From Escherichia coli 042 (lineage in GTDB: Bacteria > Pseudomonadota > Gammaproteobacteria > Enterobacterales > Enterobacteriaceae), in assembly GCF_000027125.1 (NCBI RefSeq), contig NC_017626.1: a DNA stretch of 64,000 nucleotides, one strand, 5' to 3'. The position numbers and the translations under genes were made by a program. The notes beneath the pieces were generated by a model. That model was given only the letters and a program-made list of their open reading frames with translations, did not search any database and was not told where the DNA came from. Numbering within the stretch: position 1 is the stretch's first letter; every line of letters begins with the position of its first letter. This document shows, piece after piece, positions 28,705-55,200 of the stretch.

Positions 28705-28897
<193 letters not shown>

Positions 28898-28902
<5 letters not shown>

Positions 28903-31747
28903 ATTCCCGCGATTTCCTGACCCTCTCGGCATATACCGTCAGCGTCTGTTTTATCACATCCAGCGTTACCGGCTTCGACAGGCAGCTGTCCATACCGGAC
29001 TCCAGACACCGCTGCTTCTCTTCAGCCAACGCATTAGCAGTTACTCCGATTACCGGCAACGTCAGTCCCAACTGACGAATGCGTTGCGTCAAGCGGTAAC
29101 CATCCATATTTGGCATGTTGACGTCGCTAAGCACGATATCAATATGATTCTTGCTAAGTACATTAAGCGCATCGACGCCATCATTCGCGGTTTTACATTG
29201 ATAGCCCAACGATCCCAACTGATCTGCCAGCAGACGTCGGTTAATCGGATGATCATCCACGACCAGAATCATCATATCGTCATTATCGCTGACCGCTTTG
29301 TCCGTCGACGGCAGAGCGTTAGCAGGATCGTCGCTCTCCATCTCGATCAAATAAATACGCGCCAACAATGCCGGTAGCTCATGCGGAGCAGCCACACTGT
29401 GTACCCACTCTCCTGGCGCTTTCTCCAGCGGAATACCAATATGTCGACGACAGAAGGTCACTACCGCTCTGCCCTGCCATTTTTTACTCACTACCTCGTC
29501 AGTGATTAACACATCTTCGGGAGTCGGTTCCTGCCCTTCGTATGTTGTTACGACGATGCCGCTGCGCTGCAAACTGTTTTCCAGGAACTGACAGAGCGAC
29601 GCATTGCGGACCGCCAGCCAGCAGCGTTTACCACTCAACCCTTCCACGCCTTTTTTCTGCGGGTACTGAGCGCCGTACAACGGAATACGCACGGTAAACT
29701 GGCTGCCCATTCCCGGTTCTGAATCTACCGAGATATCGCCGTCCATCATGCTGATCAGTTTTTCACAAATCGCCAGACCCAGACCGGTCCCCTGGAAGTT
29801 TCGCTGTACGCCCGTTCCGACCTGGAAGAAGGGATCAAACAAGCGCACCACTTCTTTCGCCGGAATCCCCACGCCGGTATCGCGAACACGGATAGAGAGA
29901 TAATCGCCATCAGCGCGAACATGTAGAACTATACAGCCGGTATCGGTGAATTTTATGGCGTTACTCAACAGATTGGAGATGACCTGCTGTAAACGCATCG
30001 GGTCGCCATTTAAGGCCACTGGCACATCCGGTTCAATAAAGCAGTACAAGCCTAGCTGCTTGCGTACCACCAGCGGTAAATAGTTGGCGGTGATGTGGTT
30101 CATCACTTCACGCGGTGAAAACTCACGCGGTTCGATCTTCAACTGTTCCGATTCAATCTTCGAGAAATCGAGAATATCGCTGATAATTTTCAACAACAGG
30201 CTGGAAGAGTTGTTCATTGCCGTCACCAGACGATCGACGCCTTTCGGTAACTCTTTGGTTTGCAAAAGATCCAGGTTACCGATAATGCCATACAGCGGCG
30301 TTCGCAGCTCATGACTGACGGTGGCAAGGAACATCGATTTTGACTGGCTCGCCTGTTCCGCTGCTTGTGCCATCTCCTGCAACGACTCTTCCATCTTCAC
30401 GCGCGAAGAAACATCCACCAGCACACAAATGGCCACGTTTTCATTACGATAGCGCGAATGGACGAAGCTGATTTGCAGATTGGTATTGTTGCTGGTCAGG
30501 ACATCAACAAAATTGACCTGCTGCCCACAGATAATTTGTGTCAGCCGTTGGCGGTCCTCATGCGTAAGCATATTGAGATAGGTATGCGCCAGTTCGTTAC
30601 TTAAAATATTGACGCCATCAGCGGTACGCAAAATGCAGATACCCACTGGCGCGGAGGCGACAATCTTGCGATTAAACTGCTCATGTTCTTCCAGTCGCAA
30701 GGCGTCGCTTTCCGCCGGAATGAAAATACGCCGCTCGTACATCCGCGCGAGAGTAAACAATGCAGCTCCGGCAAGCACATTCAGCAAAATTGCGTTAAGG
30801 ATCAACATGCGAATGCGTTCCAGCACCTTATCAACCGGCACCGAATACACGATGCTTAGCGATGAGGGTGGCAGATTTTTCTTCAGCACCAGCTCCCGGA
30901 ACCCTTCCGTATAGCCAAACCAGGAGCGTTCCTGCATCCAGCGAGGATCGCCCTTAATTTTGCTTTCTGGTCCGGTAAGCGAAATCAGGGTATGACCATT
31001 TTCATCAAGAATGGTAACCCCCATCGGCAACGTACCAGGTAAGAAAAAGTTCTCCATCCGGATGGTCTGCTCGACACCCAAAAGCGCCTGCAACCGGTTC
31101 GCCAGATAAACTGGCGTCAACGCGTAAAAATACCCGACGCCAGGGCGCGGACCTTCGCTGATCCAGTAGAGGTTACTGCCGCTATCATCTTGTGGTGCAT
31201 TTCGATATTTATTGATGCGTTCATGCAACGCTTTCAACGCGGTATCGCGTTCCACTGGCATATCACGCAGACCGAAATTGGCCATGCAGAGGTTATCGCT
31301 GCCGATTAAAAATACCCGGTTGAGATCGTAAGCTGCAGAGAAATTATCGCGCCAGTAGCGCATAAACCACGCCAATGACTCCAGAGAGCCTCGCCAGGTG
31401 TTACTCATTGCGGAACAATCGGAGTCGGCAAACAGCGGTTCAAACGCAGGCACATCCGCCTGCGTTTCTCGTCCACGCGGGGAAAGCACACCGTTTTCTG
31501 CCGATAAGCGATTTTCGGCGATGTACTTCAGCTCTTTCATCACATCAGAGGTGCGTTGAATAAAGCGCTGAGCCTGATCGGAACTCAGATTAAATTCCTG
31601 ACGAATTTCCGATTCTCGCTGATGTAACGCATTAACGATGTAAAAAACGGATGAAAAAGCAATCAACAGCCAGAGCACTAACGCCAATGCTCTGAACATG
31701 TAGCGCGAGGCTTTCAGGGTTGTACGAAAAGAAGCAAGGTATTTCAA
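28898..31747 (-). CDS. rcsC: Hybrid sensor histidine kinase RcsC
   Basis: 949 aa, two TM segments flanking periplasmic domain, HisKA/HATPase, C-terminal receiver. Confidence 0.9.
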
Positions 31748-52220: not shown

Positions 52221-55200
52221 CTACCATTTCACCGTCATCGACAAAAACCCTGCCGTCTGGGCAAAATCATCACTCCCTTTCTGCCACGCCACGCTGCCGC
52301 GCAGCGAAACTCGCTGACTGATATTGCCCGTGACTCCCACTTTTATTTCACCCCGTTGCTTCACCGCATCGTCACTGATAGTGCTGCCATCTTCTTCAAT
52401 TTCCGTCGCATGGGGATCGTGATAATAATTCAGATCTAATGTTGGTATGACATGAACAGCGGTACGCCATTCGCTGTGTAAACCCAGCCGCGTTTGAATA
52501 TCATCACCCTGCGATTGTGACACGCGCGCATGGTTAGCGGCGGTAAAATCATCCTGCTGCACGCCCTGATAAATCACCTGCGCCTGCGGTTCAACCACCA
52601 CACCACGCCCCGGTAACCACTGATACCCCGCTTCCAGCGAGGCGATAATCCCCGACGAATGGTAATGATCTGTGCCATCGTCTTGTTCGGAAACATCATT
52701 GTTAAACCACGCGTATTGCAGCCAGCTATCCAGCCAGGCCCCCTGCTTCTGATTACCGTGCTGAAACCAGCTTGAGGTCAGACCAACGGCATAACCGTGG
52801 TTCTGGTTATCGGCGCGAGTTCCGGTCATATTCGAGCGGCTGTCGCCCTGGTTATCACTGTAGCCACCAACCGCCCCAAGCATCCACTCGCCATCCGCGC
52901 CCCAGCGCCCGCTAAACAAGTCGCCGCTAAGCTGCACCGTAGAAGTGTCTTCATGCTGAGCCAGTTGCCCCGCTGCTGTGTAATGATAATTTCCGCCGAT
53001 AACACGTAAATTCAGCGTCTGACCATCGCCACCAGCGTGATCGTGTCGCTCCATCACAAACGCCTGATTTGCCGCCCGCAGGTTATTAAAATATCCACCA
53101 ACTTTGGCATTCAACACCGGCTGGTAGGCAGGCGTAGGGTCCGGGGCCGGGTCGGGTGTTGGATCAGGATCGGGAGTCGGGTCTGGATCAGGTGGCGATG
53201 GTGGCGTTACTTCTTGCGATCGCAGATACCAGTCGTTGTTATCTTCCACCAGCGTGTAGTCATACGCTCCCATATTGACGTAGCCGCTGCCTGCCAGACT
53301 GAACTGCGCATTGTTTTGAAACTGCGTGGGATCAGCTGCGAAATCAACCACTTTAATGCCTGTCGATGTCGGCTCACCAATCCCTGTAATGGAGTTAACC
53401 ATCACAGTTGTGTTGCCAGCAGTATTACCGTTCATCACCAATTGATCGCTTACCGAGTCATCGCCGTTTAATTCGCTATCGAGCAGTAGCGTACCACCGC
53501 CGGTATAATCACCGTTTACCGTCAGCGTATCGCCAGCGACGCCATTTTGCAGGCTAACCGCACCAGACGTATTGGTCAGATTGCCATTAACCGTCACGTT
53601 GGAAAGATAAGTCAGGCTGTCAGTTTCAAGGTTGGTATTAAGCTCGCCTGTCAACGTCACGCCATCGGTGGCATTCACCAGCGTCCCATCGCCGTTAAAC
53701 AGTGAGGCATTAAGGGCGACGGAAGTATCCTGCCCGGTCAGGCGCAAAACCGTACCATCGCTGATGTCGATAGTGCCGCTGGAAGTAGCATCAATTGACT
53801 GAATATCCTGATCCGCGCCAGTCTTGAATGTTGCCCCGTCACCGACCCACAGCGACGAAGCATAAGGGAAGATATCCGCAACATCACCTTTCAGGGTGCC
53901 TTCTTCGACACGTACCGCCGACTGCGTTGTACCGCTGGCGGTCAGTTCCAGCGTACCCGCCCCCGTTTTCGTCAATGTGCTACCCTCATCCTGATGCTGC
54001 CCGCTGCTGTCAGCCATCAGTGCGCCCCACTGCGTGTCTACCCCCGCATCAACTGCCACTTCACCGTCGGCGCGCATTTCAATATCACGCCCGTGACCTG
54101 CTGCCTCTGAACGAGTATCAACGTCAGCGGTAATTTCCATCTCACTTTGTTGTTGGCTATCAGTAAAGATGAGCTGACGGTTTTCGTCGGTATTGCCAAG
54201 CTGCGAGTTGTCGCTCACCACCAGCGTACCGGAAGCGATTTGCGTGGTGCCCAGGTAACTATTATTGTTTGCCAGGCTAACCAGCCCGTCGCCCGCATCG
54301 ATCACCACGTAGACGCCATCTTTCTCGTCGCCGCCGATATGCAAATTGTCGCCACCTGCGAGATCCACCACATCCTGACTGCCGATAACCGTACCGCCGC
54401 TGCCGCTGACTGCAAGGCCATCGTTGTATGATGTGCCGCTCTGCCAGGTGGCGAAATCAGAGAGATCAAGCACGCCGCCGTTTAACACGATCGACTGCGG
54501 ATCGTCCTGGAGAGCGGCAAGATCTGCCGCGTCGCCTTCCAGCGTAAGCACCGCGCCATCATCAACGACTATATCGCCAGTTAGCGCCATCGACTGAGCC
54601 CCTGCCAGCACGTAGCTGCCGTTTTGCGCAATGGTGAGCTGACCAGCACCTTCGATGGTGCCAGCAAAACTGCCCTGATTAACAGTAACGTTGCCACCAG
54701 CATCGATATTTAAAGTGCCATTCTGAAAGCCCATCAATGCGTGCACAAAAGTTTGTTGGGTCGAGCCAACGTTTAGCTCAGCCTGATTCTGATACTGATC
54801 AATACTCCCTATCGTCAGACCGTAGCAGTCTTGCGTATCGTCCTGGCAATGCGTATCGCCGACATTCATCAGGGAGTTGCTGCGGCCCAGGGTAACTTCA
54901 CCGTTTTCAATCTGCATCTCGCCAGTAAAGTCATTGTTATCTGCATTAAGTACCAGATCGCCGGAACCTGTTTTGGTGATTAACCCGGTACCAGCAATAG
55001 AGTCAACAGCTCCGTCATTCTCTGTATTGCCGATAACCAGCGTTTTTCCGTCGGCAATATCAAAGGTAACGTCACTTAAGCCGAGATACATAAAGCCACC
55101 CGCCGCAGTGGAAGGACCATCTCCATAGCCTGCTGCGCTATTGTTCTCATCCACTAAAACACCGTTGTTCTGGCTGTAGCTGTCATCAACTGAAATATCA

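Follow-up and report, generated by a model that had tools for sequence, protein, structure and literature searches.

The linker of the Escherichia coli autotransporter YfaL is very probably a slowly evolving, in-frame coding repeat

The linker between the passenger and the barrel of the E. coli autotransporter YfaL is very probably a slowly evolving in-frame coding VNTR in a disordered spacer, whose changes alter length and not expression. In complete E. coli genomes, the segment from WYLRS to AYQP is 21, 25, 27, 29, 31, 33, 35 or 39 aa long, thus falling into eight length classes with steps in multiples of 6 nt and with every difference inside the linker. Our starting point was the allele in the window, by which we mean the whole stretch of 64,000 nt from E. 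coli 042 that was analysed. An initial annotation of this DNA had proposed that the linker could differ in length between strains, and had suggested aligning yfaL from multiple strains and counting the units. This alignment, extended by targeted look-ups, gave one to five units in eight lengths, so that between-strain variation is borne out and an identical linker length everywhere is clearly not what is found.

The yfaL gene and the position of its linker

The product of 52221-55961 is a classical type Va AIDA-I-family autotransporter adhesin, the orthologue of YfaL/EhaC. DNA 100% identical to it carries the RefSeq name ‘AIDA-I family autotransporter adhesin YfaL/EhaC’, and Pfam matches comprise PF03797, PF18883, PF12951 and PF02415, including PATR repeats and one Chlamydia-PMP repeat. 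The neighbouring ORFs in the window match the sizes expected for the order gyrA-ubiG-yfaL-nrdA, and in related contigs methyltransferase and gyrase A genes are found downstream, in agreement with this synteny. Overall, yfaL was found in 5425 of 5426 complete E. coli genomes, and the window gene is 95% identical to the K-12-type gene. The main elements of the gene are as follows.

52221..55961, minus strand: yfaL/ehaC coding sequence, 1246 aa (ORF and translation, Pfam, RefSeq annotation of a 100% match)
53250..53582, minus strand: autochaperone domain AC_1, aa 794-904 (Pfam PF18883, E 1.7e-18; aligns to 4MEE)
53127..53216, minus strand: linker-coding segment QEVTPPSPPDPDPTPDPDPTPDPAPDPTPA, gene nt 2746-2835, between WYLRS and AYQP (codon layout)
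53064..53108, minus strand: predicted pore-spanning alpha-helix, aa 952-966 (AlphaFold2 helix, query residues 172-186; 4MEE homology)
52290..53009, minus strand: beta-barrel translocator domain, aa 985-1224 (Pfam PF03797, E 1.4e-33)

To place the linker in three dimensions, we used an AlphaFold2 model of the C-terminal part of YfaL (mean pLDDT 84.8). In this model, the last autochaperone beta-strand ends in WYLRS (aa 910-914, query residues 130-134), just upstream of the linker, which itself is coil with a block pLDDT of 51-64. Then follows the helix of aa 952-966, at the canonical position of the autotransporter ‘alpha-helical linker’, and from query residue 202 (about aa 982) the 12 long strands of the barrel. 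With AC_1 at aa 794-904 on one side and the Autotransporter beta-domain at aa 985-1224 on the other, the location between passenger and barrel that the initial annotation had given to the linker is correct. At the other end of the protein, the N-terminus MRIIFLRKEYLSLLPSMIAYLFSANGVAA resembles a Sec signal peptide by eye; a 28-aa YfaL signal peptide is given in a published toolkit.

The repeat in the window allele

The proline-rich peptide PPSPPDPDPTPDPDPTPDPAPDPTP that had been read from the DNA is real and encoded exactly at 53130-53204 on the minus strand, and the GGATC/GGGTC-containing units described with it are present on the plus strand. The repeat unit is an 18-nt sequence encoding the hexapeptide PDPDPT (CCN GAY CCN GAY CCN ACN), with a nested 6-nt period GATCCN (Asp-Pro). 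Units follow each other head to tail with lengths that are multiples of 3, and in the codon layout of the window allele three units of the PDPxPT type can be recognized.

53130-53204, minus strand: proline-rich core PPSPP...PTP, within the linker-coding segment
53175..53192, minus strand: repeat unit 1, CCT GAT CCA GAC CCG ACT = PDPDPT (codon layout)
53157..53174, minus strand: repeat unit 2, CCC GAT CCT GAT CCA ACA = PDPDPT (alignment with L010 and L003)
53133..53156, minus strand: repeat unit 3, 24 nt, CCC GAC CCG GCC CCG GAC CCT ACG = PDPAPDPT (codon layout)
53161..53171, minus strand: GATCCTGATCC, the sole remaining copy of an 11-nt direct repeat (two copies 18 nt apart in L010 and L003)
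53152..53189, no strand: Tandem Repeats Finder array, period 18, 2.1 copies, 80% match, score 48 (TRF)

By alignment with the 35-aa allele (L010, L003), unit 2 of the window combines parts of units 2 and 3 of that allele. Unit 3 differs from the K-12 unit PDPEPT by a 6-nt insertion, an imperfect duplication (CCCGGC-CCCGGA).

As DNA alone, the window linker is a repeat modestly above chance; at the protein level, it is unmistakable. Among short-period arrays of the 64-kb window it is the best, and only a 114-nt array at 28705 scores above it. In 40 dinucleotide-preserving shuffles of the window, arrays scoring at least 48 occurred on average 0.15 times, with any such array in 10% of the shuffles. 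Bases of the linker that lie 6, 12 or 18 nt apart agree in a fraction of 0.52, 0.54 and 0.61, respectively, compared to 0.24-0.25 at lags of 3, 9 and 15, an excess that arises because proline (CCN) occupies every second codon. The linker-coding segment has a GC content of 68% vs 52% for the gene.

The repeat had also been described as a substrate for slipped-strand mispairing. This holds in so far as breakpoints between alleles lie on exact direct repeats, as detailed below, but not for the window's own allele, which is degenerate. Its longest exact direct repeat measures 9 nt (CCTGATCCA, copies 24 nt apart), and synonymous codons differ between the units, making it a poor slippage substrate.

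Spacer length across complete genomes

To see where along the gene alleles differ in length, 12 full-length yfaL alleles with DNA divergence of up to 18% were aligned. Outside the linker, only two indels were detected, one of 6 nt and in frame in B2-type alleles and one of 1 nt causing a frameshift in an annotated pseudogene. Nearly all indels of this 3.7-kb gene are thus confined to a stretch of roughly 100 nt. Frequencies of the length classes were estimated from three rank-spaced samples of 60 genomes each, obtained with different queries, and from identity-band counts, and are therefore to be read as samples and not as a full census.

33 aa: 39 / 38 / 40 per 60-genome sample, 65%
27 aa: 14 / 13 / 13 per 60-genome sample, 22%
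35 aa: 4 / 5 / 3 per 60-genome sample, 7%
25 aa: 1 / 2 / 2 per 60-genome sample, 3%
29 aa: 1 / 1 / 0 per 60-genome sample, 1%
31 aa: 0 / 0 / 1 per 60-genome sample, <1%

The two extreme classes are rare, with about 17 genomes for 21 aa and 2-3 genomes for 39 aa. The 29-aa allele of the window is also rare: a 500-nt region around it was matched at 99% or more in 25 records, about 0.5%. Identity bands are blurred by partial alignments and cannot be trusted for classes whose alignments split in two. In one case, a count of 220 records for the B1 form with one unit less, taken from the identity band of a synthetic query, was discarded, as it shrank to about 17 with a real allele as query.

The major classes follow allele families: B1-type alleles have 27 aa, IAI39-like alleles have 35 aa, and the K-12, O157 and B2 types have 33 aa. 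The same length was also reached by separate routes: both the window and L017 have 29 aa, and 33 aa is built from either four imperfect or three perfect units. No description of this linker polymorphism was found in the full-text literature searched, which is no proof of novelty.

Indel footprints and a possible mechanism

More insight was gained from pairs of alleles that differ by a single event. In the case of the window, the allele lacks 18 nt that are present in the 35-aa allele (L010, L003). The missing unit is flanked by the exact 11-nt repeat GATCCTGATCC, of which the window and L011 have a single copy. The window's 29-aa allele thus goes back to the 35-aa form, with one unit lost across this repeat.

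On the K-12-type background, four variants could be compared with the parent type. Strain CFS3246 (L013) carries an exact tandem duplication of GATCCTGATCCCACGCCG, leading to five units; UTME-3 has an 18-nt deletion between GATCC repeats; one GATCCT is lost in UMNF18 and porcine ETEC (L015), and one GATCCT is gained in WP2-S18-ESBL-08 (L016). In all four, the flanks are identical to the K-12-type allele L004 at 199 of 200 bases. B1-type alleles carry the unit CCTGACCCAACACCCGAT as a perfect tandem repeat of 38 nt. Compared to the two copies of L006, one or three copies are present in L023, L024, L025 and L026, and forms with 1, 2 and 3 copies all occur in both B1 sub-lineages (PPSPP-flanked and PPLPP-flanked).

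Synthetic sequences with one unit more or less were also built by hand as predictions and then matched against the complete genomes. The K-12 product with one additional unit, predicted beforehand, matched real genomes at 99.7%, and the B1 sequence with one unit less was found at 100% in MDP9-27. At 99% identity or more, there was no genome match for the K-12 product that lacks one unit in the unit 2/unit 3 register; the only 18-nt deletion on this background, that of UTME-3, used a register other than the predicted one. Because predicted variants were found with flanks identical to the parent allele, the length changes are recent and recurrent.

Two further events were seen in single genomes. 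In L027, 7 nt within the repeat are duplicated out of frame, and the annotation lists the gene as a frameshifted pseudogene. In the other case, a 168-nt in-frame deletion joins an upstream ADPT to the DPT of the linker.

These footprints suggest occasional gains or losses of 6 or 18 nt, and sometimes of 12 or 24 nt, caused by misaligned strands in replication or by unequal recombination; either replication slippage or RecA-dependent unequal exchange would fit the genome comparison. The common products are all in frame and hence probably tolerated by yfaL, so that differing spacer lengths could become fixed in differing E. coli lineages.

Tempo of change

By comparison of the available genomes, spacer change appears slow, on the timescale of allele lineages. 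Among the closest 60 relatives of the window allele, length was uniform within each identity group in 60 of 60 cases, with a yfaL of 3741 nt in 15/15, of 3729 nt in 28/28 and of 3759 nt in 17/17. The K-12-type region of 316 nt is present at 99% identity or more in 2016 records, and about 10-17 genomes have a length variant there. In the case of the B1 background, which makes up about 22% of genomes (roughly 1200), about 17 one-copy and 10-30 three-copy genomes were counted. Variants therefore make up no more than about 1% of the K-12-type genomes and a few percent of those of the B1 type.

The better the repeat, the more frequent its variants: they are rarer with the 11-nt exact repeat of the K-12 type than with the 38-nt perfect tandem of the B1 type. 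The proportionally higher number of variants on the perfect-repeat background is what misalignment predicts. Even at 82% DNA identity, B2-type alleles have kept a spacer of 33 aa with four units. That 33 aa prevails across deeply diverged lineages could be due to stabilising selection instead of a low mutation rate.

Possible role of the spacer

Most probably, the linker serves as an extended tether of polyproline-II-like form that keeps the passenger at a distance from the mouth of the barrel, as judged solely from its composition, its position and its disorder in the model. Because proline stands at every second position, no regular secondary structure is possible in the linker. The spacer would then join the folded passenger (beta-helix and autochaperone domain) to the alpha-helix plugging the outer-membrane barrel.

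To extend the comparison beyond the species, a protein search was carried out, which returned mostly E. coli/Shigella fragments and only about a dozen usable distant homologs. Homologs from other genera at about 30% identity have Pro/Asp/Thr-rich segments of very different lengths after WYLRS. One metagenomic protein contains seven PDPxPT units, another contains PDPT twice, and a Citrobacter portucalensis homolog has six 12-aa VTPVDPDDGGSD units at the linker site; others have a short non-repetitive segment there. This variety fits a spacer with loose sequence constraint.

Selection acting in each lineage may determine the reach of the passenger through the LPS O-antigen or capsule, the repeat merely supplying the variation. 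Gain and loss of PDPDPT would then be a slow evolutionary rheostat with a lineage-specific ‘stalk length’, and the longer arrays of other genera would be the same device. We regard such adaptive tuning as unlikely. Lengths that are fixed within lineages and different between them, the 29 and 33 aa reached by different routes, and the far longer arrays of the homologs would all agree with it. Equal lengths are also expected by chance, since the steps are quantised. The full range of 18 residues spans at most about 5-6 nm when fully extended, which is small compared to a long O-antigen. In addition, yfaL is weakly expressed in K-12, with RNA values of about 10 in an adaptive laboratory evolution study.

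Alternative explanations for the length variation

It is considerably harder to reconcile our observations with a contingency locus, that is, a hypermutable repeat with length heterogeneity inside populations that switches or modulates YfaL on short timescales, and we consider this very improbable. Repeat-mediated gains and losses are indeed independent and recurring, the 7-nt duplication of L027 does break the frame in one genome, and many draft assemblies break at the linker, for which mixed populations are a possible cause in principle. On the other hand, normal slippage of units of 6 and 18 nt brings no frame switch, and the copies are few (1-5) and mostly imperfect. All variants but the 7-nt duplication are intact CDSs, so expression switching by repeat change was not observed. 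The uniformity within allele groups (60/60) and among roughly 2000 K-12-type genomes, which include laboratory-evolved lines and hold only about 1% variants, also speaks against hypermutation, as do the yfaL mutations reported in one adaptive laboratory evolution study, which are point substitutions elsewhere in the gene. The inversion-like signal of draft assemblies, described below, is an artefact and is missing from all complete genomes.

A further reading, in which alleles diverged long ago and were reshuffled by homologous recombination while repeat-mediated mutation no longer takes place, would explain why the major length classes follow allele families and are uniform inside groups. We find this hardly credible in view of four different indels whose flanks match the K-12-type allele at 199/200 bases, the 100% match to the synthetic B1 sequence with one unit less, and the one- and three-copy forms in each of the two B1 sub-lineages.

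Finally, there is next to no probability that the variants are sequencing or assembly artefacts of a GC-rich repeat: draft assemblies do misbehave at the linker (contig ends, a fold-back chimera), but the variants reported here all come from complete genomes, differ by exactly 6 nt or multiples of it, with junctions that are clean and in repeat register, are annotated by RefSeq as intact CDSs, and mostly recur independently (six porcine ETEC with the 6-nt loss, about 17 genomes with 21 aa and about 10 with three B1 copies). The evidence therefore favours the slowly evolving in-frame VNTR, in which recurrent repeat-mediated events change the spacer length.

Inverted repeat, draft assemblies and antisense reading frame

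A second sequence feature surrounds the linker, namely a perfect inverted repeat whose two arms bracket the linker and the helix segment.

53022..53033, no strand: arm of the 12-nt perfect inverted repeat, ACCATCGCCACC (partner GGTGGCGATGGT at 53191-53202)

The partner arm lies inside the PPSPP codons. A protein from a draft assembly (P0017, 53 cluster members) starts with the linker read in antisense, joined to sense sequence from further downstream. A real inversion of the linker was considered and rejected, as the contig of this protein shows a contig-end fold-back at the 12-nt inverted repeat; the inversion junction was found in none of the 5426 complete E. coli genomes. In Shigella sonnei, contigs have a fixed break in the linker, for which an IS insertion may be responsible.

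On the plus strand, the antisense ORF 53037-53471 (144 aa) was treated as a shadow of the proline-rich frame, because CCN read backwards gives Gly codons; yfaL alone is annotated under every match. Support for slippage from laboratory evolution was likewise set aside. Mutations of yfaL are reported in two laboratory-evolution papers, and those listed for one of them are SNVs (a synonymous change and Tyr195Phe) and no linker indels.

Significance

The VNTR of the YfaL linker reveals no new mechanism and is a familiar kind of phenomenon. Its significance is modest: a highly conserved autotransporter gene of E. coli carries a small coding VNTR, and linker length is a simple allele marker with eight classes that track lineages. 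For users of YfaL as a surface-display anchor, it is a caveat that the spacer differs by host strain, and the natural series of 21-39-aa spacers can be used to test tether length in autotransporter display. In addition, short-read assemblies and gene calls frequently break or misjoin at the linker.

Comparison with known systems

Among solved structures, the AIDA-I transport unit (PDB 4MEE, E 3.5e-35) is closest to the C-terminal 466 aa of YfaL. Both have the same order of autochaperone (beta1) domain, connecting segment, alpha-helix and 12-strand barrel. Where YfaL has its array of 21-39 aa, AIDA-I has the short non-repetitive HLPTSDTRQYRPENGSY.

As a spacer, the alternating X-Pro sequence of YfaL resembles TonB and the polyproline-II stalk of Streptococcus mutans P1, in each case presumably as an extended non-globular tether between domains. 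In TonB, the Glu-Pro/Lys-Pro region is a proline-rich rigid spacer. An analogy to P1 has been made before (PMC8931430). YfaL has no sequence homology to P1 or TonB, and its linker may adopt a polyproline-II-like conformation.

With the contingency loci of Neisseria and Haemophilus, yfaL shares strand misalignment at tandem repeats in a gene for a surface protein. The repeats of these genera consist of many perfect copies of units of 1-5 or 7 nt and switch at high rates, with ON/OFF effects on frame or promoter. In contrast, the YfaL array has units of 6 and 18 nt, 1-5 mostly imperfect copies, changes that are in frame, and rare variation.

Pertactin of Bordetella, with its R1 (GGxxP) and R2 (PQP) repeats, differs from YfaL in that these repeats form loops in its beta-helix passenger and have been discussed as targets of the immune response, whereas the YfaL array follows the autochaperone domain, immediately precedes the pore helix and has PDPDPT as its unit. 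We know of no immune or vaccine selection on the YfaL array. The R2 region is disordered in the crystal structure (PMC8931430). In both cases, a classical autotransporter carries proline-rich, in-frame repeats whose copy number separates alleles, and the variation is slow, on a population timescale.

Allelic divergence and inactivation of yfaL

Comparison of the whole gene (52221-55961, minus strand) revealed a deep allelic split of yfaL. The divergent alleles, represented by the loci L007 and L008, occur in approximately 1257 genomes, and their carriers are B2/ST131/ATCC 25922-like strains together with ST648. DNA identity between these alleles and all others is only about 82%, a distance well beyond typical core-gene divergence. 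The divergent alleles nevertheless have the same four-unit linker, the PDPDPT repeat spacer between the autochaperone domain and the pore-spanning helix. One yfaL match was carried by a plasmid record.

Several changes affected the linker region or the integrity of the gene. Strain VTB97022v (locus L012; NZ_CP178670.1 1606108-1607251) has lost about 168 nt in frame, and with them the last autochaperone strands, so that FAADPT, where the autochaperone region ends, is fused to a DPT from the linker; its yfaL carries the annotation of an intact CDS of 3585 nt. VTB97074v (genome match H336), a second chicken isolate of the same series, likewise aligned only partially. The sole out-of-frame repeat event seen was a 7-nt duplication, TGACCCA, within the perfect B1-type repeat of strain GPEC60-12-649 (locus L027), which shifts the frame, and this yfaL is annotated as a frameshifted pseudogene. 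Further inactivations were found (locus L005, strain FDN-9; genome match H27, strain 0H25), namely a frameshift of 1 nt at position 197 of the gene, which is annotated as a pseudogene, and an IS5 insertion that splits the gene.

As to laboratory evolution, the supplements of PMC6389913 list yfaL point mutations in two independent experiments with K-12 MG1655 and MS56 evolution lines, one synonymous and one Tyr195Phe, neither of them a linker-related change, and give low yfaL RNA levels of about 10.

Breaks and sequence features at the linker

Hundreds of YfaL fragments from draft assemblies end or start at the linker (e.g. the proteins P0012, P0013, P0024, P0042 and P0079). In draft contigs of Shigella sonnei (L018-L021) the C-terminal contig always starts with CGGCCCCTACG, and the N-terminal pieces stop at varying points within or before the linker. 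In P0079, also from Shigella sonnei, foreign sequence is joined to YfaL at approximately residue 300. Either an IS insertion within the linker or a systematic failure of assembly at this site may account for the Shigella sonnei break.

The following features were located in the window:

53022-53033 and 53191-53202: arms of a 12-nt perfect inverted repeat, ACCATCGCCACC / GGTGGCGATGGT
53037-53471, plus strand: ORF of 144 aa with GTG start, antisense to yfaL and spanning the linker
28705-28916: strongest tandem repeat of the window (score 361), 1.9 copies of a 114-nt unit at 90% match

The arms of the inverted repeat enclose linker and helix segment. At this repeat a contig-end fold-back (L022, 1-400) produces the start of P0017, a cluster of 53 draft-assembly proteins that begins with an antisense reading of the linker. 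Because this junction is present in none of 5426 complete genomes, it was rejected as real sequence and is regarded as an assembly artefact.

The antisense ORF, which reads the proline codons of the linker as a Gly/Ser-rich stretch, had annotation support in none of the matched genomes and is presumably a shadow ORF. The repeat at 28705-28916 looks like an intergenic REP/BIME-type sequence.

GATC sites (Dam/MutH/SeqA) cluster in the linker: the segment 53127-53216 has 3 in its 90 nt, and the linker of K-12-type alleles (L004) has 5 in 102 nt, against a density of 4.75 per kb for the window as a whole. The clustering is a by-product of the Asp-Pro codons, GAT-CCN.

Spacer repeats in homologs from other genera

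Distant autotransporters (P0089, P0100, P0098, P0118) carry different tandem repeats, sometimes much longer, at the same position after the conserved WYLRS motif. One distant homolog has seven PDPxPT units there, and a Citrobacter portucalensis protein has six 12-residue VTPVDPDDGGSD units. This suggests that the site after WYLRS is a hotspot for spacer repeats across the whole family.
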